A stretch of DNA of 50,152 bases. It comes from a virus. Its lineage: Duplodnaviria; Caudoviricetes. Shown here piece after piece: positions 9,100 through 48,386 of the stretch. Each line of letters starts with the position of its first letter. The first letter of the stretch is position 1. A model generated the notes under the pieces. It ran no database searches and was not told the DNA's origin. It saw only the letters and a program-made list of their open reading frames with translations. The stretch covers positions 1-50,152 of IMG/VR virus record IMGVR_UViG_3300018031_000009. One strand, given 5' to 3'. Made by a program: the position numbers and the translations under genes.

Positions 9100-9240
9100 G
9101 GAGCGTAAGTGCCTGATTACCCTGCCGTGTCCATTATAGTGGACATGCAGCGAGGTACTGGCAGTACATCGCCAGTCAGAAAAAACGCTATGTTTTTCTG
9201 ACAGTTATCTCTTGATGGTGGGCAGTTTTTTGACCGTTTC
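9100..9240. other. Putative attP region between the convergent polyvalent and integrase genes
   Basis: Lies at the int 3' end. IHF-like TAAGTGCCTGATT (9106-9118) and three inverted repeats: TGTCCA-N6-TGGACA, CGAGGTACTG-G-CAGTACATCG (9151-9171) and GTCAGAAAAA-N8-TTTTTCTGAC (9175-9202). Confidence 0.6.
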
Positions 9241-11243: not shown

Positions 11244-11473
11244 GCGATCCAGTGGGGGTGGATCCACCGACGTTTATCGGTGTCGATGTTGCGGACGTAG
11301 ACACGTCCGCCGTACCCGTGCCGGATCACCGCGCCGGTGTGAAGGTGGCTGCCGAGCTCCCAGCTTATGCCGTCACCGACCGGGTAGAGGCGGCGCACCA
11401 GCGTCGAGAGCATGTCCTCGGCCGCGGAGACCGCGGCGAGTGCGCGGCGGACCGCGTCGGCCCGCGTCTCCAT
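11240..11473 (-). CDS. Hypothetical protein
   Basis: Start and stop overlap neighbours at both ends. Confidence 0.65.
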   Translation of the reverse strand: METRADAVRRALAAVSAAEDMLSTLVRRLYPVGDGISWELGSHLHTGAVIRHGYGGRVYVRNIDTDKRRWIHPHWIA

Positions 11474-22261: not shown

Positions 22262-22531
22262 ATGATCCCGCCAGAGAAGCTCGCCGAGCTTGAGCTCAAG
22301 CACCCGGGCACGATCATCGTGGGCACGGTGAACAAGTCGAACGGGCTCAAATCCGTCGTCTACTTCCCGCGCTCGCTGAAGACGATCGAGCTGCTCATCG
22401 CCCGCTTCGGGTTCGGCGAGGAGCTGCACGGCTCGGTCATGCACATCAACCCGCCGAAGGAGCCCGGTGAGGTCGCGATCGGTTCGCCGCTGACGAGCGC
22501 GCCGCCGGAGCTGACGAAGAGGTCGACGTGA
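22262..22531 (+). CDS. Hypothetical protein
   Basis: Stop is coupled to the next GTG. Confidence 0.6.
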   Translation: MIPPEKLAELELKHPGTIIVGTVNKSNGLKSVVYFPRSLKTIELLIARFGFGEELHGSVMHINPPKEPGEVAIGSPLTSAPPELTKRST

Positions 22532-23040
22532 ACTGCCGTCGCTGCGCCAACATCCGAACCCGCCTGGTGGATTGGTTCATCGCGCTCTGCTGCCGCTACG
22601 GTCGCGAGGATCACCTCATGGACATCGACGGCAACGGGCACTACATGCGCCGCTGGGAGTTGATCCGCACGCCTTGGTTCGGCGTCCGGCTACACAACAC
22701 GCTGCGCCCCGACCTGGACAGGTATCTGCACGACCACCCCTGGGCCAACGTGTCGATCATCCTCAAGGGCTTCTACGTCGAGGCGCTTCCGCTGTTCGAC
22801 GAGCCGACGTTCGTGATGCACGCATGGCGTGGCGTGATGGTTGAGCCAGTGCGGAATGTCACCCGCGAGGCCGGTGCCGTGATCTTCCGGCGCGCCTGCG
22901 ATCGGCACAGCCTGACCGCGCTCTCGTGCGTGCCGTGCTGGTCGCTGTTCATCGTCGGCCCGCATAGGCGGGGATGGTGTTTCTACACGCCCGCAGGCAT
23001 GGTGCCGGCGGACGAATACAAAGCGAAAGGGAAACAGTGA
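22528..23040 (+). CDS. Cupin-like HDHPW-motif protein
   Basis: LHDHPW...SIILKGFYVE...FRRA...HSL...WSLFIVGP. Confidence 0.7.
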   Translation: MNCRRCANIRTRLVDWFIALCCRYGREDHLMDIDGNGHYMRRWELIRTPWFGVRLHNTLRPDLDRYLHDHPWANVSIILKGFYVEALPLFDEPTFVMHAWRGVMVEPVRNVTREAGAVIFRRACDRHSLTALSCVPCWSLFIVGPHRRGWCFYTPAGMVPADEYKAKGKQ

Positions 23041-24827: not shown

Positions 24828-25175
24828 ATGGCCAGCAGTTTCCTACCTCCCGGCCTGACGTTCCGCGCCGCCCTCCAGTACGGCTATGTCGGCCGGCTGG
24901 TGTGCGAGGACTACACCCGATGGGTGAAGACGCTGGAGTGCTGCTGCGGTTGCGGGCAGCCGGCGGATGACCCGCACCACCCTAAGCTCATGGGCTTCGC
25001 TGTCGCGGGCTCGAAGGTGCCGGATTGGTGGACGATCCCGCTCGCGCGGGCTTGCCACGATGCCCTGCACCAAAACGTGGAGCTGTGGGAGCGCCGGCAC
25101 GGGCTCCAGAGCGACCACATCCTGATGACGTTGACCAGAGCCCTATGGGCTGGGGTGTTGAAATTCAACTCGTGA
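24828..25175 (+). CDS. DUF968/HNH-like protein
   Basis: YTRWVKTLECCCGCG...DDPHH...D..TIPL.R.CHDALH...WE..HG.Q. Confidence 0.8.
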   Translation: MASSFLPPGLTFRAALQYGYVGRLVCEDYTRWVKTLECCCGCGQPADDPHHPKLMGFAVAGSKVPDWWTIPLARACHDALHQNVELWERRHGLQSDHILMTLTRALWAGVLKFNS

Positions 25176-25187
25176 AGGAGTGATTTA

Positions 25188-25511
25188 GTGGAAAGCGTGA
25201 TGCTGGTTACGTTGGGGTTGGCGGTAGCGTTCTTGGCCGGAATCGCATTCGGATGGGTGGTTGCCTACCAGCGCGGCTTCCGGGCTGGCTGGACCAAGCC
25301 GTGGCGCAAGCCGCACGGGTTGAGGGAACTCGCGGAGGCGTGGGACAAGCAAAAGATCGCCGCGCGGCAAGAGCGGGTCGAGGAGGCGTGGGATAAGCAA
25401 CAGAGCCCCCCCCTCGCCGGCGGGGTTGCGCAAGGCGTCCAGATGGGACCCGGCGACGCCTTCAAGCCCGGTGACGGCCTGTACCAGCCGGTCGCCAAGA
25501 GCGAGTCGTGA
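25188..25511 (+). CDS. Membrane-anchored hypothetical protein
   Basis: AAGGAG RBS; N-terminal TM followed by YQRGFRAG. Confidence 0.7.
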   Translation: MESVMLVTLGLAVAFLAGIAFGWVVAYQRGFRAGWTKPWRKPHGLRELAEAWDKQKIAARQERVEEAWDKQQSPPLAGGVAQGVQMGPGDAFKPGDGLYQPVAKSES

Positions 25512-26026
25512 ACCGCGTAGATTGGCCGCACGTCCTCCGCTCGATCGGGCTCCAGCTCGATCCGAAGCGGCCCGTGGCGGCGCTCGCCGAGGCCCTCAAC
25601 GCCGAGGGTTTCGAGGTCTCTCGCGACACGGTCCGTAACTGGACCGGCGGGCGCAAGGGGCGCCTCACCGATCCCGACGTGGTTTTGTGGGCGTCCCGGC
25701 AAGCGATCCGCCGCGGGATCAAACTCCGGCCGCCCTTGTCCGCCATGACGGCCCAGGAGCTCCAGGACGAGGTCAACCAGCGCACCTCGAAGGTGCTCCA
25801 GGGGATTGTCCGGCGGAATCCGCCGCCGGTCGGCGGACGGCGTGGCGTGGCGGTAGCTCAGTCGGTAGAGCGCGGGGATGTGGCCCCCGTCGTCGTGGGT
25901 TCGAGCCCCACCCGTCACCCCCCGCTGCCTGCCGACGCCGCCGAGAACGCCGCCACCGCCGCGGAGTTCGCCGCGCGCGAGGTCGCGCCGGCCCCCTCAG
26001 ACGATGACGTTGGAGACGTAATGTGA
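25508..26026 (+). CDS. HTH-like protein whose 3' half overlaps a tRNA gene
   Basis: VAALAEAL...VSRDTVRNWTGG; GTGA start coupling and TGATG stop coupling. Confidence 0.6.
   Translation: MNRVDWPHVLRSIGLQLDPKRPVAALAEALNAEGFEVSRDTVRNWTGGRKGRLTDPDVVLWASRQAIRRGIKLRPPLSAMTAQELQDEVNQRTSKVLQGIVRRNPPPVGGRRGVAVAQSVERGDVAPVVVGSSPTRHPPLPADAAENAATAAEFAAREVAPAPSDDDVGDVM
25847..25919 (+). tRNA. tRNA-His (GTG)
   Basis: Acceptor GTGGCGG/CCGTCAC, D arm GCTC/GAGC, anticodon arm CGGGG-ATGTGGC-CCCCG (GTG at 25880-25882), T arm GTGGG-TTCGAGC-CCCAC, discriminator C. No encoded CCA or G-1. Confidence 0.85.
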
Positions 26027-26415
26027 TGGCAGCCTTTCACCAGGACCTCCTGCCGGCGATCGAGCTCGCCCTGATCCAGTGGGCGGCCTGGGTGCGGGCG
26101 TACAACGTCCGGGGCCGGCTCGGGCTGCCCGACCATTCGCCGGGCTTCCTGTCCGGCGGGATGCATGGCAGCGTGGATGCCTCCTTCGAGGAGACATACG
26201 GCCACGAGATCGACGTCCGCCGCGCCAGCGCGATCGAGGCGGTGATCCAGGGGCTCGTGCGCCCCGAGCAGATCGCCCTCGAGGACGAGTACGGCCTGAG
26301 CATCAACAAGTGGCGGTTCGTGGTGTTGCAGGAGGGCTTCGAGGTCGTCCTGGCCCGCGCGAAGCGGAACGTCCTTGCCGGTGTCCGGCGCCGCGGCGAT
26401 GTTTGGCTTGGCTGA
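26026..26415 (+). CDS. Putative Q-like late regulator/antiterminator
   Basis: L..WA.W...LG.P...D...IEAVIQGL...QIAL...Y pattern; position at the end of the nin-like region. Confidence 0.55.
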   Translation: MAAFHQDLLPAIELALIQWAAWVRAYNVRGRLGLPDHSPGFLSGGMHGSVDASFEETYGHEIDVRRASAIEAVIQGLVRPEQIALEDEYGLSINKWRFVVLQEGFEVVLARAKRNVLAGVRRRGDVWLG

Positions 26416-26416
26416 A

Positions 26417-26581
26417 ATGACCATCCGGCCGCGAATCACGCTGCGGCGGGTCAAGTCGGGGACCGGATACCTCGTCACCGTGAGGTCTGACTACTGGCAC
26501 CGATCCACCTACGTCCCGGTGGCTACGTTCGGGGAGGTGGTGCGCGCGCTTTCGGAGAGGTGGGAGAGGTACGCCCCATGA
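26417..26581 (+). CDS. Hypothetical protein
   Basis: ATGA coupling to the next gene. Confidence 0.5.
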   Translation: MTIRPRITLRRVKSGTGYLVTVRSDYWHRSTYVPVATFGEVVRALSERWERYAP

Positions 26582-26976
26582 ACCGGCGAGGCTTCCTTGC
26601 CGCTCTCGGGTTGGGGTTGGTCGCCCCTGCCTGGGCATTTAAGCCAAAGCCAACTCACCCACTGTTCGCCGGGCAGGTCGGCCACTACAGCGAAATCACC
26701 ATCCGCCACATCGAGGCCATGAGGGCGGCGATCGATTCCGCTGAGTGGGGTTCCGAGTATTTGATTGTCGTAAACCCAAAGCAATTCAAGTGGTTGAAGG
26801 AGGGGGCGGCGCGCTCTTCCTGGAGGGAGGTCCACCGGGCCTGGAGGGTGGCCGGCAGGCCAGGAAGCAGCGATCCTCGCTCGGTCCTGGCCGCGACGAA
26901 GTGCGATCTGTGGCATAGCCTGCGGTTTGCGGAAAAAGTCACGCTTCCACTCGACGTGGTTGACGCCGGTCCCTAG
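26578..26976 (+). CDS. Tat-signal protein resembling a major-capsid fragment
   Basis: MNRRGFLAALGLGLVAPAWA signal; HPLFAGQVG and other blocks resemble the MCP at 47097-48386. Confidence 0.6.
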   Translation: MNRRGFLAALGLGLVAPAWAFKPKPTHPLFAGQVGHYSEITIRHIEAMRAAIDSAEWGSEYLIVVNPKQFKWLKEGAARSSWREVHRAWRVAGRPGSSDPRSVLAATKCDLWHSLRFAEKVTLPLDVVDAGP

Positions 26977-26988
26977 TAGGGGGATACT
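26960..26988 (+). promoter_or_regulatory. sigma70-type promoter (pR'-like)
   Basis: TTGACG - 17 bp - GATACT, with CCTAGTAG in the spacer. Confidence 0.7.
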
Positions 26989-27054
26989 CTGCTCGTGGGG
27001 ACGGCGCTCGCCCCAACTGAACGGCGCCCTCCGGGTTCCCGGAGCTATCTACCC

Positions 27055-27083
27055 AGCGCCGGCTCCCGCCGGCGCTTCCATTT
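27055..27083 (+). terminator. Terminator/attenuator-like hairpin
   Basis: AGCGCCGGC-TCCC-GCCGGCGCT followed by a weak T tract (TCCATTT). Confidence 0.45.
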
Positions 27084-27095
27084 CTGGAGCTCAAC

Positions 27096-27326
27096 ATGCC
27101 CGACAAGGTGCGCCCGCTGAACGTGTACGCCCCGGCGGGCGTCCGCAAAGGCAAGATCGAGGAGCGCGTGCGCCGCGGCGAAATCGGGGCTCTGAGCGAT
27201 GTGCCCGCCCCGACGCCGGTACCAGGGCTCGGCGAGCGCATTGCGCCCGCCGGCAGCATCGAGGAGAAGCTGTTGAAGGACGCGGAGCGCAAGAAGCGCG
27301 CGAGCGCCCCGCCGATCAAGGACTAG
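27096..27326 (+). CDS. Hypothetical protein
   Basis: GGAG RBS; downstream of the promoter. Confidence 0.65.
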   Translation: MPDKVRPLNVYAPAGVRKGKIEERVRRGEIGALSDVPAPTPVPGLGERIAPAGSIEEKLLKDAERKKRASAPPIKD

Positions 27327-27336
27327 CGCGCGGGCT

Positions 27337-27465
27337 TCACCACTTCGGCCCGAAGAGCAACTCGAGCAGCACGAGCAGGGCGATCGCCACGATGATGGCG
27401 ATGATCTCGCTGCGGCGGTTCTTGGGACTGCCCTCGTTGGGGTCATCGTAGCGGTCGCCGCTCAT
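27337..27465 (-). CDS. 42-aa membrane peptide
   Basis: EIIAIIVAIALLVLLELLFG; ATGA coupling. Confidence 0.55.
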   Translation of the reverse strand: MSGDRYDDPNEGSPKNRRSEIIAIIVAIALLVLLELLFGPKW

Positions 27466-27680
27466 GGCAATAGCGGCCTAATGTCGAGAGGGATGTTTCG
27501 CCTCGCGAAGCGGTAAGCTGCCAGCCGACTCTCGAACCCTGCGATCGGCGCATGGAATCCCAGGAATGCCGACTTCGAGCTGTATCGAGCGTAGGTCACG
27601 CGCATGTCGTAATGCACGCCGTCGAACGTGACTCCCGGTGGGACCGCGACGAGCCAGTAGTAGACGTCGGACGTTTTCAT
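27462..27680 (-). CDS. Hypothetical protein
   Basis: Coupled at both ends. Confidence 0.6.
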   Translation of the reverse strand: MKTSDVYYWLVAVPPGVTFDGVHYDMRVTYARYSSKSAFLGFHAPIAGFESRLAAYRFARRNIPLDIRPLLP

Positions 27681-28078
27681 GCGAGCGCTTCCACGTCGAA
27701 GGCTTCCATCGCGGCGTTGAAGCCGTCCGGGTCGTTCTCCGAAAACGTCCAGTCGGAGATCACGTCGATGCCATTGCCTAGGACCAGGGTGATCGTGTGC
27801 CGGCGCTGACTTGCCGGACTGCGCCCCACGTCCTTCGTCAAGATCAGGTAGGCCAAATCGACGTTGAAGACCAGTTCCATCGCGGTCTTCATGTCGCGCG
27901 CTGGCTCCAGCTCATCGCCGCCATCGTCCACGGCGATCAGGGCGAAGCCCGCGGCGTCCAGGTGCGCGATCAGATTGGCGACGATGCGCCGCTCCAGGCG
28001 CCCCCCGGGGCTGACTTCCTGCGCTGCATCGACGGCGAGGGATGGGACCTGAACGGCCCCGCAGGTCGGGCACTTCAT
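27677..28078 (-). CDS. Early-phage hypothetical protein
   Basis: AVDDGGDE...LVLGNGIDVISDW motif; coupled. Confidence 0.7.
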   Translation of the reverse strand: MKCPTCGAVQVPSLAVDAAQEVSPGGRLERRIVANLIAHLDAAGFALIAVDDGGDELEPARDMKTAMELVFNVDLAYLILTKDVGRSPASQRRHTITLVLGNGIDVISDWTFSENDPDGFNAAMEAFDVEALA

Positions 28079-28296
28079 GTGAGCTTCTCCCCCGCCTCGT
28101 TGTAGCGTTCGACGCTGTTGACCTGGGGATCCATGCCAACGATCGTTTCGATCATTCGCATCGCGACGGACTGAGCCATGGTGAGGAGGGCGTCCTCGCC
28201 GCCGCTGATGACCGGCTCAAACTGGATGCAGATGTCCACCTTCGTCTGGTCGGCGTCCGCCGCCGGGTCCTGGATGGTGATGATGACCTTCGCCAT
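28075..28296 (-). CDS. Hypothetical protein
   Basis: GGAGG RBS; coupled stop. Confidence 0.65.
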   Translation of the reverse strand: MAKVIITIQDPAADADQTKVDICIQFEPVISGGEDALLTMAQSVAMRMIETIVGMDPQVNSVERYNEAGEKLT

Positions 28297-28297
28297 G

Positions 28298-28483
28298 CTA
28301 TACGTCCTCCCCTAGTTGTCGGACCAACATCGAAACGCACAGGTCGTCGGCGAGCACATCGGTGCATCGCCCGTCATGGACGACGAATACGCGATCTACG
28401 TCACGCGACATGGAGACGAGCCGAAAGCGATCCGGCACTGCGTTGCCGCAAACGTAGCAGCGAAGCGCGGGCTTAGACGCCAT
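28298..28483 (-). CDS. Small Cys/His protein
   Basis: CYVCG...HDGRC. Confidence 0.55.
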   Translation of the reverse strand: MASKPALRCYVCGNAVPDRFRLVSMSRDVDRVFVVHDGRCTDVLADDLCVSMLVRQLGEDV

Positions 28484-28736
28484 GCGGGAACGCGCAGATG
28501 AGGTACTCGCGCCCGTCGATGTACGCGCGGCGCATCGCCTGATCGTAGATCGAGTAGAGCGCAGCGACTTCGTCGCTGACGAATTCGTGAGCCGGCTCGG
28601 CGGTGTCGCCCATTACCGCGTAGGCTTCGACGTGCATCGGCACGCCGATCGCGATGGTGAGCTTCTCGCGCGCAGTGAGGCGCGCCCAGGGCGCGTCCGC
28701 GGGGCCGGTCTGTTCCCATGTGGTATCGAAGCGCAT
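28473..28736 (-). CDS. Hypothetical protein
   Basis: GAGGAG RBS before ATG at 28736. Confidence 0.7.
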   Translation of the reverse strand: MRFDTTWEQTGPADAPWARLTAREKLTIAIGVPMHVEAYAVMGDTAEPAHEFVSDEVAALYSIYDQAMRRAYIDGREYLICAFPHGV

Positions 28737-28851
28737 GCTGTTCTCCTCGTCGTGGTGGTAGTTGGAGGCGCCCTCCCGTGGTGGGAGGACGCCTGGGACT
28801 ACCGGCAGCGCGGGTCGCCTCGCGGAAACTCGATGCCGCCTTGCTTGCAAC

Positions 28852-29490
28852 CTACTGAGGGCTGACCTCGCCCTGGTCGGTCGAGAACTTGGGGCTGGCT
28901 TCGGCCGCCAGATCCGCACGCGCTTCGCGGATGAGGGCCTTGCCTTCGGCGACCATTGACGTGTCCTCGGTCTGGATGCCGACGTGGACCATCTTCACAC
29001 CCAGGTCCAGCTTCGAGCAGATGAAGTCGCGAACGGAGCCGTTCGCGGCAACGCCGCCCCAAATGGCAGAGACGCCGCCACCGACTGAGATCCGGCACTG
29101 CGCCGACGGAGCAGCCGCGCCGAGCGAAACCGATGCCGCCTGCCTGGGGGCGGAAACGGTCTGCACCGGAGCGACGGTAGTCGGAGCGGTGGCTTTGGCA
29201 ACCGAAGCGGCTGCCGCAGCGGCGAATGACGATGATTTGCTGCTGGCGTGTGACGAAGGCGAGAAGTTGTTGAAGCCGTTGCCGATGTTCACGGAGTTGT
29301 TGGCGTTGCCGCCCTTCCCGCCGTGACCACCCTTGCCGCCTTCGCCGCCCTGCCCACCTTGGCCGCCGTTCCCGCCGTTGTTGCCGTTGTTGCCGTTGCC
29401 GTTGCCATTGCCATTGCCGTTGTTGCCGGCAAACGCGGCCGACGCGAACGCCAGCGCGAGCGCGACGATGATGGTGGTGATGCTCTTCAC
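28852..29490 (-). CDS. Exported Gly/Asn-rich low-complexity protein
   Basis: Sec signal ending ASAAFA; GN/GGx repeats; C-terminal two-Cys domain; AAAGGA RBS. Confidence 0.75.
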   Translation of the reverse strand: MKSITTIIVALALAFASAAFAGNNGNGNGNGNGNNGNNGGNGGQGGQGGEGGKGGHGGKGGNANNSVNIGNGFNNFSPSSHASSKSSSFAAAAAASVAKATAPTTVAPVQTVSAPRQAASVSLGAAAPSAQCRISVGGGVSAIWGGVAANGSVRDFICSKLDLGVKMVHVGIQTEDTSMVAEGKALIREARADLAAEASPKFSTDQGEVSPQ

Positions 29491-29504
29491 TTGAGGATTT
29501 CCTT

Positions 29505-29738
29505 TCATGGTTGAGGGACTCCTTGGCCTTGCTGTTTGTTGTAGACGTTGGGGGTGGTACGAAACCTCTCCAGCACCTCGGCGCGCACGCTGCGCACCGA
29601 TGCGATCGGAGTGATATTCGCTACGTTCGTCACCTTGCCGTGAAGCACACGCAGGACGACGCCCGTCTCGAAGTTGATGAAGAGCCACGGCATTGGCTGC
29701 CGCACGCTCCCGGTGGTGATGGTCGGGTCGAGGTTCAC
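29505..29738 (-). CDS. Hypothetical protein
   Basis: GTGA coupling. Confidence 0.55.
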   Translation of the reverse strand: MNLDPTITTGSVRQPMPWLFINFETGVVLRVLHGKVTNVANITPIASVRSVRAEVLERFRTTPNVYNKQQGQGVPQP

Positions 29739-29911
29739 TCGGCGCGCTCCTGCCCGTCGCGAGCCGTGATGACGCGCGCCGGAGCGGCGCCAAAAATCTT
29801 GTCGAGCGCCTCGCTCATCTGGCGCAGCCGAGCCTTCTCGCGATCGGCGCATGAGAAGTAGGCGTGAAGCATCGTCAGCGGCAGGTTGCAGTAGGGGCAG
29901 AGCGGGATCAT
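29735..29911 (-). CDS. Small CxxC protein
   Basis: CPYC...H...C; coupled at both ends. Confidence 0.6.
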   Translation of the reverse strand: MIPLCPYCNLPLTMLHAYFSCADREKARLRQMSEALDKIFGAAPARVITARDGQERAE

Positions 29912-30252
29912 TCGCCGCGGTCCTTGGCGACCAGGGAAGCGAACAGGCACGCGAGGATGCGGATGCCGCGATGCTCCTCGTCCAACGGCCCGAGCCAGTA
30001 ATGTGGCGGGCTCTCCTCAAACTCGAGGTCGGTGCGCGCGTCTGCCTCGAACAGCTCCGACATGATTGCGTCGGCGCGGCGCTCGGCCCGCAAAGACTCG
30101 ATGTAGTGTTCGGACCACCCCTCGCCCCAAAGCCATTTACGGGCTAGGGCCGTAGCAACGCACGCGCCGATGGTCGCATCCTTGTTCTGTTCGATGAACT
30201 TGGCGGCGTACAACAGGACCGTCGAAGGCTTCTTTATGGCGGAAGGTTTCAT
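29908..30252 (-). CDS. Hypothetical protein
   Basis: ATGA coupling at both ends. Confidence 0.7.
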   Translation of the reverse strand: MKPSAIKKPSTVLLYAAKFIEQNKDATIGACVATALARKWLWGEGWSEHYIESLRAERRADAIMSELFEADARTDLEFEESPPHYWLGPLDEEHRGIRILACLFASLVAKDRGE

Positions 30253-30491
30253 TCCGGGTCTCCATTGGTTCCGGGGTGCGCCTCGACGCACTCGGTATCG
30301 GTGTGGCACCGCTCGTCGAAGAAGGCCGGCGCGAGCGCGAGAACGAAGAACAGGATGCCGATGCCGCCGATGATGACGGCGTAGGCGAAGAAGCTCGCGG
30401 CGTCTTTAGTGTGCGTCGAGCGCGGCTGATGCCGCGCCTCTACCACGCGCTTGACCATGCGCTGCGGGTATTTGGACCAGTTCATTTGCAT
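30249..30491 (-). CDS. Single-pass membrane protein
   Basis: GGAG RBS; TM FFAYAVIIGGIGILFFVLALA; CHTDTEC. Confidence 0.7.
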   Translation of the reverse strand: MQMNWSKYPQRMVKRVVEARHQPRSTHTKDAASFFAYAVIIGGIGILFFVLALAPAFFDERCHTDTECVEAHPGTNGDPE

Positions 30492-30512
30492 GACTCCGAT
30501 AGTAACCGATTG

Positions 30513-30608
30513 CTAGGCGAGCGCGCGCCAAAATATCCAGGCGGCGACTGCCATAATCCCGACGATGATCGGGTAGAACAGCACCGACGACTCGTTGCGG
30601 CGGCGCAT
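30513..30608 (-). CDS. 31-aa membrane peptide
   Basis: MRRRNESSVLFYPIIVGIMAVAAWIFWRALA; TGATG coupling. Confidence 0.55.
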   Translation of the reverse strand: MRRRNESSVLFYPIIVGIMAVAAWIFWRALA

Positions 30609-30901
30609 CAGTAGCCGTCCCGCGCGAAGCCGGTGGAATAGTGCCTGTCGATGCTCTGCGACTCACGGCCGTAGTTGGGCGTTTCGCAGTAGCGGCGATT
30701 GAGTATTCCTTGTGCCGCCCGGACGGCGTTGTGCAGCGCCTCGTCCTCGTTGCGACCGTATGTCGCGCAGAGTGAGAGTGGGTGGTGGTCGCCCGTGCCG
30801 TAGGAGTAGACGCGCGCCATGAACGGAAAGATCGCGCCGCGTGGCGCGCGGTCTACCGAGACGCGCAGCCGCACGGGGATGGTGGGCTCGATGATCTTCA
30901 C
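30608..30901 (-). CDS. Hypothetical protein
   Basis: Coupled at both ends. Confidence 0.65.
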   Translation of the reverse strand: MKIIEPTIPVRLRVSVDRAPRGAIFPFMARVYSYGTGDHHPLSLCATYGRNEDEALHNAVRAAQGILNRRYCETPNYGRESQSIDRHYSTGFARDGY

Positions 30902-31137
30902 AGCGGCGGCTCCTCCTCTTCCTCGTCGGTGTAGTCACCGATGAGGCTGTCGAGCACGTCCAGGAGGTCGTCCATCGCGTTGAGCTGGCGGGTGATCTCC
31001 TCGCGTTCCTCCGGGGTGCCCTCGGTCTCGTCCTGTGCGGCGGCGTCCCATGCCTCTCGCACGTCCGCTAGGCGTGCGCCGGCACCTATCAGGTGCTTGC
31101 GGATGCCCTCGCGGGTCGTGAGGTCGTGTGTGCTCAT
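30898..31137 (-). CDS. Acidic helical protein
   Basis: AGGAG RBS; Asp/Glu-rich with EEEEE near the C-terminus. Confidence 0.7.
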   Translation of the reverse strand: MSTHDLTTREGIRKHLIGAGARLADVREAWDAAAQDETEGTPEEREEITRQLNAMDDLLDVLDSLIGDYTDEEEEEPPL

Positions 31138-31457
31138 GTTGGTGCTCCTGATGTGACAGGGAAGTCCCCAAGGCCGGGCCAGTCGTCGCGCTCGCGCGCG
31201 GATAGGCTCACGATCAGCCCAAGCTCGCTATCGTAGGCGTCGCCCTCCCAGCCATCGTGCGCCCGAACGTGATACATCTGCTCAAGGCTCGGATCAACGT
31301 CCGGGCCGTCCGCTTCCTCCGGCGTGCATTTGCGGAGGCACAGCACGATCTGTCCGGCGTGCGCCGTGTAGTCCGGGTGCATGCTGAATTCGGTCGGATA
31401 GTAGAATCGCCAGCACAGGCCGGCTTTCTGATCGGTGCGGGTGAATGGCATGCTCAC
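31134..31457 (-). CDS. Hypothetical protein
   Basis: MYHVRAHDGWEGDAYDSEL motif; coupled at both ends. Confidence 0.7.
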   Translation of the reverse strand: MSMPFTRTDQKAGLCWRFYYPTEFSMHPDYTAHAGQIVLCLRKCTPEEADGPDVDPSLEQMYHVRAHDGWEGDAYDSELGLIVSLSARERDDWPGLGDFPVTSGAPT

Positions 31458-31795
31458 TCCTCCCGCGCGGCCGCACGCATGGCGGCGGCGACGGCGGCCG
31501 CGGTTTGCCCGCGCCCATCGTTCCAGAGCACGAGGTCTCCCCCGGGGTCGGACGACAGCTCAAGCCCAAGATGTGCCAGCACGCGCCGGGTGCTGTCGTC
31601 GACGATGGCATGCGGCAGCGAGAGCCGGCAGGCGGCGGCGCGGATGGCGCCGTCGGCACACCAGGAGCGGGCCGCGGCTTCGGTACTCAGGCAATCCGCG
31701 CCCATGGCGTCACGGGCGTAGGCGCCAGTCGTCCAGCCGCTGTCGATGAGCGCGGCCGCGGCGGTGAGCACCGCAGTAAATGGTTGTGGCTTCAT
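31454..31795 (-). CDS. DUF6197-like protein
   Basis: VL..AA.LI..GW..G.YAR...WC..GAI...WND...T...V...M..AA; GAGGAG RBS. Confidence 0.75.
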   Translation of the reverse strand: MKPQPFTAVLTAAAALIDSGWTTGAYARDAMGADCLSTEAAARSWCADGAIRAAACRLSLPHAIVDDSTRRVLAHLGLELSSDPGGDLVLWNDGRGQTAAAVAAAMRAAAREE

Positions 31796-31809
31796 GCGTG
31801 TTGCTCCTC

Positions 31810-32121
31810 TCAGGTGGCGTGACAAGTGGCGTTGCCGACCGGGAAGAACCACTCGTCCGGCATGCCGTCATGCTCGCCGTCGTATGGGTCGATGTGGGCG
31901 AGTTCGCGCGGGCGCAGGATCACGCCCTTGACCGGGCAAGAGAGGCGCACGCGGCTCGGCGCACGCGGCGCCTCGTAGACGATCGACGGATCGAACAGGC
32001 CATAGCGCCCCGGCGGCGGCGGGTGGAAGCCCCCCGCGGCCTTGACGGTCGCGCCCAGGAGGCCCAGGCCGACGAGCATCAGGATGAGGCCCAGCGTCTC
32101 GCGTGCGTTGGCGCGGATCAT
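31810..32121 (-). CDS. Membrane-anchored/exported hypothetical protein
   Basis: N-terminal hydrophobic helix; ATGA coupling. Confidence 0.65.
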   Translation of the reverse strand: MIRANARETLGLILMLVGLGLLGATVKAAGGFHPPPPGRYGLFDPSIVYEAPRAPSRVRLSCPVKGVILRPRELAHIDPYDGEHDGMPDEWFFPVGNATCHAT

Positions 32122-32348
32122 GCGGGCGTCTCCCCCAAGAGCTTGCGACCCTCGGGCGTGCGGGCGTACTGGACGGTGCTCCAGGCGTCACGCGCGCCTC
32201 TGTCGAACTGGCGTTTCGTCTGCCAATCGAGGGTGCTGTGAAAGATGACGTGCCGCATGCAGTCCTCGATCTCGGCCACGTCGGCGTCCGTGAGCGGCGA
32301 CTTGATCGCCGCGCGGATGGCTTTGGCGTAGGCGGCTCGGGTGCTCAT
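32118..32348 (-). CDS. Hypothetical protein
   Basis: IEDCMR...HSTLDW.T...F motif; coupled. Confidence 0.7.
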   Translation of the reverse strand: MSTRAAYAKAIRAAIKSPLTDADVAEIEDCMRHVIFHSTLDWQTKRQFDRGARDAWSTVQYARTPEGRKLLGETPA

Positions 32349-32884
32349 CAGATGCCTCTCTGCGCGTCTTCCGCGTCGTTGCGGGCTACGGCGGCGAGCG
32401 GGCCATAGACCGGCTGCCCATCGTGCCGGGCGAGCGCAGCGGCGTACCGCTCACGGCTGATCTCGTCCAGCGAGGCGAGGTAGTGGACCTGCTTCGCGCG
32501 CGGGTCGTCGCTGTCGAGCCACGCGCCAGCGGGCGCGAGGTAGGCGACGTAGCTGGTGCCGGGCTGGCGAGCGTTGCGTGCCATCGCAATGGCGGCGGTC
32601 AGCGCGTCCTGCGGGAAGTGTTCGGGGAAGGCAAGGGCGACGATGATCCAATCGCAGTCTTCTTCGTACCAGCCGAGCCCGAAGCCGCCGACGGCGGGAT
32701 GGGTTGCATCGACGTATGGTGAGCGAATCGCGCGCAGCGCGGCGGGCATGTCAGCCATCTTGGCGGGGGTGATGTAGTAGCCGCCATGGGATGACGTGGA
32801 TACCCGCACGATCCCCTTCGCAACGTCGGAGCGATGATCGGCGCGGCCCCAAGGGGTGCGCCCGATAGCGAGAGCGTTGTTCAT
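32348..32884 (-). CDS. DUF7007-like protein
   Basis: TPWG...GI..VST.SHGG...WYEEDCDW..V..AFP..F. Confidence 0.75.
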   Translation of the reverse strand: MNNALAIGRTPWGRADHRSDVAKGIVRVSTSSHGGYYITPAKMADMPAALRAIRSPYVDATHPAVGGFGLGWYEEDCDWIIVALAFPEHFPQDALTAAIAMARNARQPGTSYVAYLAPAGAWLDSDDPRAKQVHYLASLDEISRERYAAALARHDGQPVYGPLAAVARNDAEDAQRGI

Positions 32885-33294
32885 GCGGCCCCCGGAGCGG
32901 TCAGCTCCCACTTGGCAGCCACGGCGGCAAGCCGATCCAGCCACTCGGCCGGCGGGAATTTGTCATGAACGCGTTGGAGTGCTTCGAGGAAGAAGCGATC
33001 CCCTTGGCGCTCGTGCTCTACGCCAAGGCTCGCGTAAACCTCGTCGAGCACCGCGACCACGGGCATGGCCTCAATGTCCATGTCAGGGTAGTAATGCTCG
33101 TCCGTGATGAGCGCGCCAATGGCGCACTTGAGGCCGGGCATGTCGTAGGCGTCGCCCCGATAGCGGCACTTGAACATGGAATGCGTCTCACCCTCGAAAT
33201 TGTTGGCCTCTTCCATGCGCCCGCAGGGCACGCCCTGTGCCATCAGATGCGCGTGAACGCGGTTGAGCACGTCCTGCCTGTCCATGTATGTCAT
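32881..33294 (-). CDS. Early-phage hypothetical protein
   Basis: HL.AQG...C.YRG...KCAIG.LI.DE.Y...LQ..HD motif; coupled. Confidence 0.75.
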   Translation of the reverse strand: MTYMDRQDVLNRVHAHLMAQGVPCGRMEEANNFEGETHSMFKCRYRGDAYDMPGLKCAIGALITDEHYYPDMDIEAMPVVAVLDEVYASLGVEHERQGDRFFLEALQRVHDKFPPAEWLDRLAAVAAKWELTAPGAA

Positions 33295-33419
33295 TGCGGT
33301 CCTCTCAGAAGGTGAATGCCGGCCCCGATCCCGAAGAGCGCGGCACAGGTGGCCGCGACCGGGAACAGGACCGACGTGAAGAAGTCGGCGAGCGCGAGCG
33401 CGATCAGGATGCCGGTCAT
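33291..33419 (-). CDS. 42-aa hydrophobic peptide
   Basis: ATGA coupling at both ends. Confidence 0.55.
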   Translation of the reverse strand: MTGILIALALADFFTSVLFPVAATCAALFGIGAGIHLLRGPQ

Positions 33420-33502
33420 TTGCGAAACATAATCCAGAGCGGGCACGCGATGAACGCGAGTACCGCAACCTCTCGGGCAAGCTCGATTTCGGCGGGGCTC
33501 AT
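33416..33502 (-). CDS. 28-aa hydrophobic peptide
   Basis: ATGA coupling at both ends. Confidence 0.5.
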   Translation of the reverse strand: MSPAEIELAREVAVLAFIACPLWIMFRK

Positions 33503-33723
33503 GCGAACGCCTGCCCGCGAGTCCAGGCGACCGTAAAGCCGGTGCGGACTTCGCTCGTGATGACGTGCGTTGCGCTGGGGTGAGCGGTTAGCGCCTCGCG
33601 CGCCGCGCTCATGTGGTTGAGGTGATGGTGGGCTGGCTCGAGGACGCCGCCGCCCCCGAGCAAAGCAATGGCAATGTCGCCGGTGTCTCGGCTGACGATC
33701 AGCGGGATGGCGCGGATCTTCAT
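33499..33723 (-). CDS. Hypothetical protein
   Basis: ATGA coupling at both ends. Confidence 0.6.
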   Translation of the reverse strand: MKIRAIPLIVSRDTGDIAIALLGGGGVLEPAHHHLNHMSAAREALTAHPSATHVITSEVRTGFTVAWTRGQAFA

Positions 33724-33884
33724 GCGCGCCCCCGCCATGCACCAGCAAAGGCTGACGGAATCTCGCTCAGGACTTCCAGGACGCCGCGCGCGGCCGCCTC
33801 CACGCACGCCCCGACAACCAGGAACGGAAAGGCGACGCACAGCACCACGCGCCGGGCGATTGTGTTGCGGATGGTGGCGATCAT
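33720..33884 (-). CDS. 54-aa membrane peptide
   Basis: GGAGG RBS; RRVVLCVAFPFLVVGACV; coupled at both ends. Confidence 0.55.
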   Translation of the reverse strand: MIATIRNTIARRVVLCVAFPFLVVGACVEAAARGVLEVLSEIPSAFAGAWRGRA

Positions 33885-34081
33885 GCACCCTCCACGGCGA
33901 GCGTGACCAGGAGGCGCGAGCCGATTGCCGGCGTGGCGTGGCCGACGAACGCGCTCTTGCGGACGTAGAGCGTGCCGATCACGATGTCGTCCTTTTGGAC
34001 GTTGACGCCTTCGGCATCGACTTCCGTAAAGCGGAAGGTGCCCGGCGTTTCCTTCTCGAAGGCGAAGCGGACGGTCTTCAT
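33881..34081 (-). CDS. Small beta-rich hypothetical protein
   Basis: AGGAG RBS; FEKETPGTFRF...IGTLYVRKSA. Confidence 0.75.
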   Translation of the reverse strand: MKTVRFAFEKETPGTFRFTEVDAEGVNVQKDDIVIGTLYVRKSAFVGHATPAIGSRLLVTLAVEGA

Positions 34082-34083
34082 GG

Positions 34084-34281
34084 CTACTCCTGGTGGTTTA
34101 GGGGGATCGGGTAGCTGCGCGCGACCTTGCCGACGCGCGCCGGCTGCGGTTTGAGCATGGTGATGCGGGAGAGCAGGTGCCGTGCGCCGTAGAGGGGATA
34201 CTCGGCGGTGAGCTTGCCCAGCGCGTCGCGCAGGATTTCGCGCTCGGCCCCGGTCATGTAGAGGGTGTAGTGGTCGCTCAT
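34084..34281 (-). CDS. Hypothetical protein
   Basis: ATGA coupling. Confidence 0.6.
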   Translation of the reverse strand: MSDHYTLYMTGAEREILRDALGKLTAEYPLYGARHLLSRITMLKPQPARVGKVARSYPIPLNHQE

Positions 34282-34493
34282 GTGCATGCCTCGCAGTAGC
34301 GGACGCGCGCAGGAACGCTGGCATTGCAGCCGCGGCATTCGTGCGTCTGGTTGGAGCAGCCGGTTTCGTGAGCCGGCATGCCGTTGATGACCAGCGCCGC
34401 GCAGGACGAGCACGCGACGCGGTAGGAGCGGGTGAAAGGGACGTGCGTCGTTCGGTCAAAGCCGGCGAGCCGGAGTGCTTCGATCTGGGTCAC
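34278..34493 (-). CDS. Cys-rich Zn-finger protein, first gene of the inverted cassette
   Basis: CSSC.ALVING...HETGC.N...CRGC...CEAC. Confidence 0.7.
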   Translation of the reverse strand: MTQIEALRLAGFDRTTHVPFTRSYRVACSSCAALVINGMPAHETGCSNQTHECRGCNASVPARVRYCEACT

Positions 34494-34527
34494 GATTAGG
34501 TGCGCCTTATCAGATATGGCAAGATTG

Positions 34528-34564
34528 CCTAGTCACAGATTACTAGGAACCGGCAGGAAGTCAA
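34528..34564 (-). promoter_or_regulatory. Leftward promoter overlapped by a 20-bp operator-like palindrome
   Basis: TTGACT (34564-34559) - 16 bp - TAATCT (34542-34537); CCTAGTCA-CAGA-TTACTAGG at 34528-34547. Confidence 0.65.
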
Positions 34565-34584
34565 GCCCCTCTAATTGAGGGATC

Positions 34585-34899
34585 GTGAACAAAGGTCACA
34601 CAAGGATGCGTGTCGAACCATCGACGGCCGAGACCATGCGCGAGGCGCTCGCCCGCGTTGAGGTTGTGGCGCGCGCGTTCGGGTGGACCGAGGACGACAA
34701 GGCCGCGGCCCGTGCGCTCGCCCAGCGCCGGCCCGGCGCGCTCCTGTCGCAGCTTCGGGTCTGGTCCGCGATGAAGCCGGGGCCGGACCCCGCCATCCCT
34801 GTCACGTTCGCCGTGCCCGGCTGGGGCGCGATGGACTGTCCCGTGTGCGGGAGGCCGGCGGGGACATGCGACTGCCACGGCGGCGCGACCCCGGCGTGA
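34585..34899 (+). CDS. Hypothetical protein (C-terminal CxxC...CxC)
   Basis: Stop is coupled to the next GTG. Confidence 0.55.
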   Translation: MNKGHTRMRVEPSTAETMREALARVEVVARAFGWTEDDKAAARALAQRRPGALLSQLRVWSAMKPGPDPAIPVTFAVPGWGAMDCPVCGRPAGTCDCHGGATPA

Positions 34900-35150
34900 G
34901 CCCCAGCCGTATGCAGAACGAGCCGCGCAGCGTCGCCTTTCGCGCATGGGAGGGGACGACGGACGCCCTGTGGCGGGGCGCGATCTACACGGTCCTCGCG
35001 ATTGCGGGCCTGATCTTCTGGACTGCCACCGGCGGCGCGAAAGTGACGGAATACCGCCACTCTCAGGTCAGGCGTCGGAACCGCGACATGGTTGCCAGGC
35101 GCGCCAGGACGCGCTCCAGCGCCCCGATGACCGACCGGCATGGTAGGTAG
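34896..35150 (+). CDS. Single-pass membrane protein
   Basis: GAIYTVLAIAGLIFW followed by a basic tail. Confidence 0.5.
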   Translation: MSPSRMQNEPRSVAFRAWEGTTDALWRGAIYTVLAIAGLIFWTATGGAKVTEYRHSQVRRRNRDMVARRARTRSSAPMTDRHGR

Positions 35151-38130: not shown

Positions 38131-39666
38131 ATGTCGGTGAAGCGGAAGCTCCACTCGACGTGGCAGATGTCGAAGGAGGACTTCAAGATCCTCGAGCTCA
38201 TGGCCGACTACTACGCGGATCCGTACGGGTTCGTGTGCGACGTCTTCGCCTGGGGCAAGGGCGAGCTCTCCGAGCACGCCGGCCCGGACGACTGGCAGCG
38301 CGAGGTGCTGCTCGAGATTGGGCGCCGGGTGGCCGAGAACACCGAGGAGAAGCCGGACGGCACCTGGGACATGAAGCCGTTGGCTGACGCCATCCAGATC
38401 GCGGTCGCGTCGGGCCACGGGGTTGGGAAGAGCGCACTGATCGCGTGGATCATCCTGTGGTTCATGTCGACGCGCGAGCACCCGCAGATCCCGGTAACGG
38501 CGAACACGCAGCACCAGCTCTTGACGAAGACGTGGCGGGAGCTGTCGCGCTGGCACCAGCGGTGCTTCCACAAGCACTGGTTCGAGTGGACGGCGACGCG
38601 CTTCTACCACAAGGCGTTTCCGGAGACCTGGTTCGCCGCGGCGATTGCCTGGTCGAAGCAGCACTCGGAGGCGTTCGCGGGAACGCACGAGAAGCACGTC
38701 CTGCTCTTGATGGACGAGGGCTCGGCGATCCCGGACATGATCTGGGAGGTGTCGGACGGCGCGATGTCGACGCCGGGCGCCATTCGCATCGCGTTCGGCA
38801 ACCCGACGCGGAATCACGGCCGGTTCTCCGAGTGCTTCCGCAAGTTCAAGGCCCGGTGGTGGACGCGGCAGATCGACTCGCGCACCTCGCGGCTGACGAA
38901 CAAAGTCCTGATTCAGCAGGCGATCGACGACTACGGCGAGGACAGTGACTTCGTCCGGGTCCGGTGGCGCGGCCTGTTCCCGCGGCAGTCGGAGACGCAG
39001 TTCATCTCGAGCGAAGCCGTCTTCGCGGCCCAGCAGAAGAACCTCCCCGAGGAGGCGTACAAGGACCAGCCGAAGGTGGTGTCGGTCGACGTCGCGCGGC
39101 ACGGCGGCTGCAAGACGGTCATCACGATGCGGCAGGGCCGGAAGGTCTGGCCGCAGATCAAGCTGCGGATCCCCGACCTGGTGCAGGTTTCGCGCCACGT
39201 CGCGAACGTGATCGAGGATTTTCAGCCGGACGTCCCGACGCAGGTTGACGCGACGGGCATGGGATGGGGCGTGGTCGACACGCTGCGCTCCTGGGGCTAC
39301 GCGGTGAGCGGCGTCGAGGTCGGCACGAAGGCGGACCGATCGGAGCAGTACCACGATCGCCGATCCGAGCTCTGTGACAAGATGAAAAAGTGGGTCGGCG
39401 ACGGCGCGGACATCCCGCCGGATCCCGAGCTCGCGGACGAGCTCACCTCGCTCGCGCACCGCTACGACGACAAACAACGGCTCGAGCTCCTCTCGAAGCA
39501 GCACATGGAGAAGGTGCTCGACCTCCCGAGCCCCGACTGCGCGGACTCGCTGATGATTTCCTTCAACGCGCCGTTGGTCGGGACCAAGTCGTCCGACTCG
39601 ACGGCGGCCCGACGCAAGGCCCGCGAGAAGCGGGGCGAGCGTTTTAATTGGAAAGCCGGAGCATGA
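38131..39666 (+). CDS. terL: Terminase large subunit
   Basis: SGHGVGKS, LLLMDEG, FGNPTR, VDVAR.G, D.TG.G.GV.D, SPDCADS. Confidence 0.95.
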   Translation: MSVKRKLHSTWQMSKEDFKILELMADYYADPYGFVCDVFAWGKGELSEHAGPDDWQREVLLEIGRRVAENTEEKPDGTWDMKPLADAIQIAVASGHGVGKSALIAWIILWFMSTREHPQIPVTANTQHQLLTKTWRELSRWHQRCFHKHWFEWTATRFYHKAFPETWFAAAIAWSKQHSEAFAGTHEKHVLLLMDEGSAIPDMIWEVSDGAMSTPGAIRIAFGNPTRNHGRFSECFRKFKARWWTRQIDSRTSRLTNKVLIQQAIDDYGEDSDFVRVRWRGLFPRQSETQFISSEAVFAAQQKNLPEEAYKDQPKVVSVDVARHGGCKTVITMRQGRKVWPQIKLRIPDLVQVSRHVANVIEDFQPDVPTQVDATGMGWGVVDTLRSWGYAVSGVEVGTKADRSEQYHDRRSELCDKMKKWVGDGADIPPDPELADELTSLAHRYDDKQRLELLSKQHMEKVLDLPSPDCADSLMISFNAPLVGTKSSDSTAARRKAREKRGERFNWKAGA

Positions 39667-47096: not shown

Positions 47097-48386
47097 ATGC
47101 AGACCCAAGTTCCGGTCGGCTCCCCGCTCGCGCGCAAGCTGTTCAGCATCGGGCTGTTCACTCAGTACCAGCAGGCAGCCGGCTTCGGCCGCAATCTCCG
47201 CGGCCCCATGCCGACGCAATCGGCAGCGGAGGGCAAGATCAAGATGCAGTCCCCTCCGGGGATGCCCGTGGTGATGGCGACCGACCTCACCAAGACGGCG
47301 GGTGACGCCGTCAGCATCGACTGCTTCGACATCATCGGCGGGAAACCGCTGGTCGGCGACGTCAACGCGGAAGGGAAGGGCGAGAAGCTCACCTCCACGT
47401 CGATGGACGTCCGCATCGACCTTCTCACGAAGGTCGTGGATGCCGGCGGCAAGATGGCCCAGAAGCGGACGCTCCATCAGCTCCGCGGCATCGCCCGCAG
47501 CCAGCTCGTCGGCTACTACGCCAAGCTCGACTCGCAGTCGACCCTGGTCCACATGGCCGGTTCTCGCGGCACGCAGTCCAGCCGCGACTGGCTGATCCCC
47601 ACGGCGGCAGACGTCGACTTCGCCGGCATCCTCATCAACACGGTGAAGGCGCCGACGTACAACCGTCACTTCGTCGCGAACAACGGTGCCACGAAGGAGA
47701 TCACGCAAGGCGGTCTCCAGCTCGCGTCAATCGACTCGGGCGACGTGCTCTCCCTGGAGCACTTCGACATCTTGCGCGCGATGCTGGACGACATGGTGTA
47801 CCCGCTCCACCCCGTTCGGATCCAAGACGATCCGGCCGCGGCGGACGAACCCATGTGGTGCATGTACGTCACCGCGCGGCAGTGGAACTCGATCCTGGTG
47901 AACACGACCGGGCTCGTGTGGCGGACGTTCCTCCAGAACGCCTGGAACCGCAAGAACTACGGGTCGAAGCACCCGCTGTTCAGCGGCGAGACGGGCATGT
48001 GGAACGGCATCCTCGTGAAGCGGCTCGATCGCTTCTCGATCCGGTTCCTGCCGGGTGACGCCCACCAGTTCGTTGCTGTCGCCGACCGCTTCACCGCGGC
48101 CGAGACGGCGGGCACCGTCAACGCTGGCCTCACGGCCGGCTACGCGGTCGACCGCGCGCTGCTGCTGGGCGCGCAGGCCATCGGCTACGCTCTGGGCGTC
48201 AACGAGGGGTCGCAGTATTTCTTCTCGTGGCTCGAGCGGAAGTACAACTTCGAGCGAAACCTCGAAGTGGCTGGCGACCAGATGCACGGCAAGGCGAAGA
48301 TCCGCTTCGGCTACCCCGACAACGAGGGGAACGTCGAGCCCACGGATCACGGCGTCATCGCCTTCGACACCGCGGTCAAGCTGTAA
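47097..48386 (+). CDS. Major capsid protein (N4-gp56/DUF4043 family)
   Basis: DLTKTAGD.V, P.VGD..AEG.GE.L, HPLFSGETGMWNGILVK, DRALLLGAQA, DHGVIA.D; AAGGAG RBS. Confidence 0.92.
   Translation: MQTQVPVGSPLARKLFSIGLFTQYQQAAGFGRNLRGPMPTQSAAEGKIKMQSPPGMPVVMATDLTKTAGDAVSIDCFDIIGGKPLVGDVNAEGKGEKLTSTSMDVRIDLLTKVVDAGGKMAQKRTLHQLRGIARSQLVGYYAKLDSQSTLVHMAGSRGTQSSRDWLIPTAADVDFAGILINTVKAPTYNRHFVANNGATKEITQGGLQLASIDSGDVLSLEHFDILRAMLDDMVYPLHPVRIQDDPAAADEPMWCMYVTARQWNSILVNTTGLVWRTFLQNAWNRKNYGSKHPLFSGETGMWNGILVKRLDRFSIRFLPGDAHQFVAVADRFTAAETAGTVNAGLTAGYAVDRALLLGAQAIGYALGVNEGSQYFFSWLERKYNFERNLEVAGDQMHGKAKIRFGYPDNEGNVEPTDHGVIAFDTAVKL

Follow-up and report, generated by a model that had tools for sequence, protein, structure and literature searches.

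A small phage-encoded protein with a twin-arginine-type leader and a probable relationship to the A-domain of major capsid proteins

We analyzed a DNA window of 50,152 bases, which is the whole of an IMG/VR virus record (completeness estimate 91%, G+C 65-70%) and belongs to a temperate phage, with respect to a small gene at 26578-26976. The gene product, designated P0001, consists of a leader, MNRRGFL..AWA, followed by about 105 residues. A first-pass annotation, made from the sequence alone, had proposed that it joins a twin-arginine signal to a fragment resembling the phage's own major capsid protein (MCP). The features on which the analysis is centered are the following.

26578..26976, plus strand: gene of P0001 (132 aa), including the stop codon at 26974-26976; recognized by the open reading frame (ORF) and its translation, the family-wide start, the ATGA overlap and the third-position GC content (GC3) of the frame
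26578..26637, plus strand: twin-arginine-type leader, residues 1-20, with MNRR, GFL, an Ala/Gly/Leu-rich stretch and A-W-A
26656..26715, plus strand: displaced HPLF block, residues 27-46, resembling MCP residues 292-311
26695..26739, plus strand: first predicted main helix, about residues 40-54, from the AlphaFold 2 (AF2) model; proposed counterpart of MCP helix 220-232, not significant pairwise
26755..26934, plus strand: core segment, putatively capsid-like, residues 60-119, with the strand YLIVVN, a long helix with AAR..W....R.WR.AGRPG and a C-terminal hairpin remnant
47097..48386, plus strand: MCP (P0002, 429 aa) of the N4-gp56 / Phage_capsid_3 type (PF13252, E 1.4e-95; phrog_334, E 8e-91)
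47853..48023, plus strand: MCP residues 253-309, the segment resembled, with a strand, a two-part long helix, HPLF and a hairpin

The gene at 26578-26976 is real. The ORF lies where it had been placed, i.e. from the ATG at 26578 to the stop codon at 26974-26976, and encodes 132 aa. This ATG is preferred to an upstream GTG at 26560 because all 10 members of the protein family described below begin at the same MNRR. A Shine-Dalgarno-like GGAGAGG is located about 10 nt 5′ of the ATG, and the ATG overlaps, as ATGA, the stop codon of an upstream ORF.

26375..26581, plus strand: upstream ORF of 68 codons, GC3 0.84, no family match (Pfam, PHROG)

This arrangement makes translational coupling of the P0001 gene to the upstream ORF likely. 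Throughout 26570-26930, the third-position GC content is highest in the P0001 frame. The GC3 value of the gene is 0.75, below the values of 0.84-0.91 of its neighbors. The gene is the second-last of a rightward block, the operon with primase, helicase and HNH genes, and is about 20.5 kb away from the capsid gene, in agreement with the distance of about 20 kb given in the first-pass annotation. The stretch is present in 6 DNA runs labelled as freshwater sediment metagenome, 3 of which may be sources of this DNA, and contigs of 4 runs contain the gene with 0 differing letters.

An exhaustive phmmer search against 1.84 billion representatives yielded eight sequences at E ≤ 0.001, i.e. P0001 itself and seven relatives with E values from 4e-10 to 8.5e-4. 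A profile search added two members, resulting in a family of 10 proteins, all of which have 106-149 aa and the same leader. The members share 24-33% identity with P0001. All relatives stem from metagenome assemblies, with a single sequence for each cluster; their contigs have 0.6-19 kb (the longest, with P0006, 19.4 kb). In the alignment of the 10 sequences, R79, W82, R90, G93 and P95 of the mature part are invariant, and the consensus of the mature part is Y..(V/I)HP.Q..(D)LR..AAR..W.DAYRAWR.AGRPG...PR.IL, followed by P....GEIG..EGFRFI. The mean pairwise identity is 0.43 for the leader, 0.40 for the core (residues 60-98), and 0.12 for residues 26-59. The architecture that had been noticed in P0001, a twin-arginine-type leader and a part probably related to a capsid A-domain, is thus shared by a 10-member family and is not the accident of one sequence.

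Other searches did not extend the family. A word-based homologue search found the query alone, and none of 50,697 phage records was matched by P0001 in tblastn at E ≤ 1. Comparisons of P0001, P0003, P0004, P0006 and two sub-alignments with viral, genome and metagenome contigs revealed no true relative; the sole contig match covered only leader residues 1-21, was in no long ORF, and was judged to be due to chance. The family alignment found nothing in two genomes and seven matches in 401 genomes of one order, all of which were leaders of far longer proteins or a stop-containing frame.

The consensus of signals for twin-arginine translocation (Tat) is RR-x-F-(L/I/F), often with K as the next residue. 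In all 10 members R3, R4 and F6 are invariant, and MNRRGFL as a whole is nearly so. The invariant RR-x-F is followed by L, I or F and then, in five members, by K, R or Q. An Ala/Gly/Leu stretch of 13-17 residues with moderate hydrophobicity follows, with a near-conserved Pro by its end, and A-W-A is at residues 18-20. A simple count of the uncharged run after RR gave 17-25 residues with a mean Kyte-Doolittle value of 1.5-1.9 for the five measurable members (17-18 residues in four of the five, 25 in P0004); in the other five the count was stopped by a charged residue right after the motif. Motif, stretch, Pro and A-W-A fit a cleavable Tat signal, with a cut site predicted by eye. The best match of the family profile in the PDB is the Tat signal peptide of CueO (E 0.073). 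Compared with known Tat signals (PF10518, TIGR01409; the short CueO leader), P0001 has RR-x-F-L(-K) at residues 3-8, an Ala-rich stretch, Pro and a candidate A-x-A cut site in common, whereas its n-region is very short and its passenger has no cofactor-binding family. A lipoprotein leader was rejected: no Cys is near the leader, hence there is no lipobox.

For the part after the leader, the first-pass annotation had quoted five pairs of strings from P0001 and the MCP. All are present, at positions 27, 40, 61, 81 and 110 of P0001 and 292, 218, 254, 274 and 300 of the MCP, and the identities in blocks 1-5 are 6/11, 4/14, 2/10, 2/9 and 1/6, respectively. BLASTP aligns only residues 27-46 with MCP residues 292-311 (E 0.001). 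The Smith-Waterman score of this HPLF block, 51, was equalled by one of 1000 shuffles of the mature part. When the block was removed, 176 of 1000 shuffles equalled the best remaining local score; the number was 82 of 1000 with the MCP limited to residues 206-315. The five-block alignment was therefore upheld in one part, the HPLF block, which is beyond chance, while the other four blocks are at chance level pairwise.

The displacement of the HPLF block to the N-terminus, which had also been proposed, is supported by a second family member. Positions 255-281 of phrog_334 match the HPLF region of P0001 (E 0.046). The segment around positions 241-281 is aligned with residues 21-47 in the case of P0001 and with residues 94-130 in that of P0003. 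The C-terminus of P0003, NPLFKG..VWNGFQF, has the colinear order. P0001 carries the HPLF.G copy directly after the leader and a weaker C-terminal hairpin remnant, CDLWHSLRF; P0007 and P0010 have PLWG and PFWG, respectively, at the HPLF.G position. The displaced block may have arisen by partial duplication or permutation, or it may be a product of chance.

At the profile level, the resemblance is located in the core. The hhalign comparison of the family with 10 diverse MCPs gave a score of 41.2 (probability 77%, E 2e-5) and aligned P0001 residues 60-119 with MCP residues 253-309, i.e. blocks 3-5. For comparison, 200 column shuffles of the family had a mean score of 12.3 (standard deviation 2.0, maximum 17.7), so that the observed score is about 14 standard deviations above them, and reversed controls scored 9.0 and 8.7. 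When both phage proteins, P0001 and P0002, were left out, the score was 37.3 for the same segment. The identity between family and capsid in the hhalign columns is about 13-17%. The initial idea of a resemblance specifically to the phage's own MCP is not supported; the divergence is old and deep, and the signal persists without either protein of this phage.

A hidden Markov model (HMM) of the MCPs pointed in the same direction. Six of the 10 members scored better with it than all 300 of their own shuffles, and the scores of the other four were equalled by 1, 2, 4 and 6 shuffles. The best domains of all 10 members were on HMM positions 234-304, and one domain of P0001 covers residues 15-46. When the HMM was run against the window's 584 stop-to-stop frames (length 50 aa or more), the only match besides the MCP was the P0001 ORF (12.7 bits, E 0.0014); the frame ranked next had 1.9 bits. 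A second MCP alignment yielded an HMM that scored the P0001 ORF with 10.0 bits and the following frame with 1.5 bits.

Three family libraries were also searched. In PHROGs (38,880 families), seven of the 10 members match phrog_1357 and four match phrog_334, both annotated as major head protein; nine members match at least one of the two, and P0009 matches neither. In NCBIfam (18,950 models), TIGR04387 (N4-gp56 major capsid) is matched by six of 10 members, with a best E value of 1.3e-4. The Pfam scan (24,736 models) took in eight members, without P0010 and P0011; three matched Phage_capsid_3 and one matched Phage_capsid_2. The matches agree in place and order. On the Pfam profile, the Y..HP.Q strand-helix covers positions 210-245, and P0003 extends the match with its hairpin up to 270. 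In the phrog_1357 alignments, residues 29-128 of P0007 are paired with positions 178-260 and residues 29-127 of P0010 with 179-259. For P0004, P0007 and P0010, nearly the whole mature part (from 17/29 to 119/128) is aligned with positions 171-260 of 356, including the helix of block 2. The full HK97 fold is not covered, the matches being limited to about 210-270 of 376 positions (Pfam) and to 171-260 of 356 (phrog_1357).

The MCP has a solved relative, 8h89. Its nearest cultured relative is that of Achromobacter phage CF418P1 (54% identity); the heads of 933W-like phages, F116 and Bcep22 are more distant. A 90% identical fragment of the capsid gene, its sole near copy in species genomes, was seen on a contig in an Egibacteraceae metagenome bin; with 1.6 kb, this contig is too short for a reliable host.

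For the MCP, AF2 produced a model that is confident in the range 140-360, with predicted local distance difference test (pLDDT) values of 84-92 in the segment 253-309. It contains the spine helix (126-154), a helix at 220-232, a strand at 253-258, helices at 260-269 and 272-287, and a hairpin of the strands 299-302 and 305-309. In the HK97 fold, elements that follow the spine helix are part of the A-domain. The P0001 model has helices at 39-54, 67-91 and 100-106; residues 60-66 with YLIVVN are unstructured, and the sheet is not modelled. The order of elements, i.e. helix, strand, long helix and hairpin, fits between the two predicted structures. Specific to the family are an insertion of 15-20 residues (AGRPG...PR.IL) that precedes the hairpin and a set of invariant Arg and Trp positions. 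A protein atlas comparison was uninformative, with scores of 0.82 (in the chance range) and template modelling (TM) values below 0.5.

Several results weigh against this interpretation. With regard to the capsid relationship, all library matches are below the curated cut-offs (the best Pfam capsid match has 17.8 bits versus a cut-off of 23), and the members are mutually related, so their matches are not independent. The four colinear blocks on their own are not significant in the pairwise comparison. In the reverse direction, the family HMM did not place the MCP among its top 10 of the 584 window frames, and Arg-rich spurious frames reached 4-8 bits. An hhalign comparison with the single MCP gave a probability of 0.4%, and one with 45 closer, less diverse MCPs gave the same alignment with a score of 29.3, an E value of 0.0017 and a probability of 15.7%. 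No capsid chain was found in the PDB by the family profile at E ≤ 10. The AF2 model of P0001 is weak, with a mean pLDDT of 61 and values below 50 for residues 18-33 and 116-132, and when it was used for a Foldseek search, neither BFVD nor PDB contained a match at E ≤ 0.001. With regard to the leader, Pfam TAT_signal matched four of the eight scanned members with 13.4-20.7 bits, below the cut-off of 22.7, and did not match P0001 itself, and TIGR01409 matched one of 10 members (E 0.06). The leader scores remain under the cut-offs because the n-region is very short. Furthermore, a location in a phage is seen for P0001 only, the other members being known from metagenome contigs, and a Tat system in the host of the phage is assumed. 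Taking both sides together, we regard a relationship of the family to capsid proteins as quite probable from the sequence comparisons, and not as proven.

The module was compared with known proteins of similar design. The MCPs of the N4-gp56/933W type (PF13252, TIGR04387, phrog_334, phrog_1357) share local colinear similarity over about 55-85 profile positions and HPLF.G with the small proteins. In contrast, the latter have about a quarter of the MCP length and do not contain the N-arm, E-loop, spine helix and P-domain. P0001 is not a capsid protein because three quarters of the fold are lacking.

A precedent for a stand-alone module is offered by the Family 4 or "A-domain encapsulins" (PF08967/DUF1884; PDB 2PK8). 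In the sections of the source that deal with them, these are described as stand-alone proteins of about 100 aa with the A-domain only, in which two main helices surround a small sheet; as cytoplasmic and without signal peptide; as occurring in hyperthermophilic archaea and two genera of Bacteroidetes, encoded downstream of enzymes; and as having an unknown function (Andreas & Giessen 2021, PMC8346489). As far as these sections describe them, they resemble the P0001 module in being stand-alone A-domain proteins of about 100 aa. In contrast, P0001 is phage-encoded, has a twin-arginine leader and lacks an enzyme neighbor. PF08967 was matched by none of the eight scanned members at E ≤ 1, and no 2PK8-like chain was among the PDB matches of the family profile at E ≤ 10. 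The small family is not Family 4 because it has no PF08967 match, has a leader and, in P0001, a phage-borne member.

Among the main texts searched, no paper was found that describes a Tat leader attached to part of a capsid protein. In the part of PMC13128918 that concerns the Tat signal of CueO, the signal is used merely as a tool, and that part contains no precedent for a leader-capsid design. As a putative Tat passenger, P0001 would be ordinary in its mechanism and unusual in its ancestry. The re-use of encapsulins, including Family 4, is known; new here would be an exapted HK97 A-domain that is predicted to be export-tagged and is borne by a phage.

P22 SieA and Ltp-type lipoproteins are superinfection-exclusion or moron proteins of prophages that act in the envelope, and they are membrane proteins or lipoproteins, not Tat passengers. 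P0001 is similar in that its gene is small, accessory and separate from the structural module of a temperate phage, and in that its product is predicted to be envelope-directed. It differs in the putative Tat route and in a probable capsid ancestry, which is not reported for those proteins, and this comparison is by description only.

We favor, with moderate confidence, the reading that P0001 is a predicted Tat-routed, stand-alone A-domain derivative that probably acts at the envelope as an accessory or conflict factor. This choice is based on the predicted Tat route, the accessory position of the gene, and the divergence together with new invariants. The gene is regarded as accessory because it is outside the head module, is absent from the nearest phages, and has a lower GC3. 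We infer export, cleavage, oligomerization and an exclusion role. A module of about 100 residues would descend from the central A-domain segment of an HK97-fold MCP of the N4-gp56 / 933W type. It would fold in the cytoplasm, perhaps into an oligomer because A-domains pack around capsomer axes. The leader would bring it to the TatABC translocase, signal peptidase would cut after A-W-A (residue 20), and the module would be freed into the periplasm or kept on the outer side of the inner membrane, where it might serve as an accessory or conflict factor; our preferred guess is exclusion of incoming phages at the envelope stage and not a part of the phage's own head. Transport by Tat would be appropriate for a passenger that acquires its fold or oligomeric state beforehand, which is conceivable for an A-domain. 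A re-used domain with a new job is more in line with the deep divergence and with the family-specific residues R79, W82, R90, G93 and P95, which are absent in capsids, than a faithful capsid mimic, and both features suggest that an A-domain scaffold was re-used for a new partner.

A more far-reaching version is tentative. P0001 could belong to an undescribed class of phage proteins, i.e. export-tagged mimics of the phage's own virion proteins, with an A-domain sent by Tat, folded or as a capsomer-like ring, into the envelope. Its task would be either to intercept proteins that dock on the A-domain surface of capsids, e.g. components of related phages entering the cell, or to pull host sensors that bind capsid protein from the cytoplasm to the membrane.

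If true, this would represent a new weapon in phage-phage or phage-host conflict. HK97-fold domains have already been re-used for cell-internal compartments (encapsulins), and a capsid-derived domain exported by a phage would differ from these in that part of the virion architecture would be located in the periplasm, a compartment crossed by every incoming phage genome. If both export and a conflict role are true, the family would be a new class of phage accessory proteins and offer a handle on A-domain surface binding. Even with a mundane function, it illustrates that a similarity missed in pairwise comparisons can be recovered at the level of profiles.

The main rival is mimicry of the capsid in the cytoplasm, before or instead of export, which we consider unlikely. 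In this scenario, the protein would be a decoy for capsid-sensing defenses, or a poison or tether that captures capsid subunits of its own phage or of a rival and, by using its leader as a handle, retains them at the membrane or the Tat machinery. The retained pieces are the most conserved ones of the capsid family, HPLF.G being invariant in 45 of 45 MCPs and present in P0001 and P0003, and the conservation of the leader at the level of the core would be unusual if it were merely cut off. In contrast, the deep divergence from capsids and the family's own Arg/Trp motif are not what one would expect of a faithful surface mimic, and the uncharged run of 17-18 residues in four of five members, together with the Pro near its end in most members, looks more like a cleavable signal than a membrane anchor.

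Somewhat less probable still is that the resemblance to capsids is due to chance or convergence and that the gene encodes an unrelated small, Tat-exported moron protein. The sub-threshold matches of non-independent members, the negative reverse HMM search together with the 15.7% for the 45-MCP alignment, the four of five blocks at chance level and the empty fold searches are all compatible with this explanation. It does not account well for capsid families being the top recurrent match in three differently built libraries, with the same segment and order, for an hhalign score about 14 standard deviations above shuffles that persists without the phage's own proteins, and for the P0001 ORF being the unique second match of the MCP HMM in the genome.

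A role as helper in the assembly of the phage's own head, e.g. as a membrane-bound nucleation or docking piece that holds nascent capsomers via A-domain contacts, is improbable. Probable homology to a capsomer-forming domain and a leader that could hold the protein at the membrane would be in line with such a role. It is opposed by the location of the gene at the end of the early-right operon, about 20 kb from the head module, and by the lack of a relative in CF418P1 and all 50,697 phage records (tblastn, E ≤ 1), since one would expect an essential part to have been retained together with the head genes. Least probable of all is a dead remnant or miscalled ORF, for which the GC3 below that of neighboring genes and the fact that no RNA run is listed for the stretch could be quoted, against a 10-member family with the same start, length class and invariant residues at 24-33% identity, a start coupled to the upstream ORF, and the GGAGAGG.

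The wider genome contains the following features.

9205-10248, minus strand: integrase, in a leftward block with single-stranded DNA-binding protein (SSB) and exonucleases
Rightward early block: primase, helicase and HNH nuclease
25847-25921: tRNA-His (anticodon GTG)
38131-39666: terminase large subunit, head module
40251-42857: portal, head module

The tRNA-His sits within a long ORF at 25508-26026, the 3′ half of which is probably non-coding because of it. A blastn comparison of 25000-29000 with the phage collection yielded a match of about 70 bases, at the tRNA-His (Erythrobacter phage, 83%); the rest was unmatched. Neither Pfam nor PHROG gave a match for the neighboring ORFs at 26023-26415 (tested at E ≤ 0.01), 26375-26581 and 27096-27326, and the label "Q-like" that the first of these had received is tentative. 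A lysis gene (SAR, i.e. signal-anchor-release, endolysin or spanin after a Q-like gene) was considered and rejected: there was no family match, and inspection by eye revealed no transmembrane segments in the neighbors. Among the ORFs looked at, none was recognizable as a holin, endolysin or spanin gene, in a record that is an estimated 9% incomplete.

Between the early-right operon and the packaging genes, the region 27462-35141 (minus strand) contains small, mostly unassignable genes; the matches among its scanned ORFs were just phrog_4158, phrog_17693 and two weak ones. Elsewhere, a 135-aa protein encoded at 10860-11267 (minus strand) has an RF-1/GGQ release-factor domain only (phrog_20323, phrog_3122). 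A 170-aa protein encoded at 22528-23040 corresponds to phrog_4786, annotated as cysteine dioxygenase (E 9.5e-34), a metabolic-type gene that is unusual in a replication operon. At the left end, 78-9077 is occupied by one ORF of about 3000 codons, which is open at the start of the record.

A promoter-like site is located over the 3′ end of the P0001 gene and before the ORF at 27096-27326.

26960..26988, plus strand: TTGACG-17-GATACT, promoter-like

The consensus promoter scan returned this one site versus 0.5 expected from shuffles, which is no evidence of function. A stretch of about 55 bases at 26960-27014 recurs on short contigs of two runs with 6 differences and unrelated flanks, and may be a shared regulatory element or the copy of a relative.

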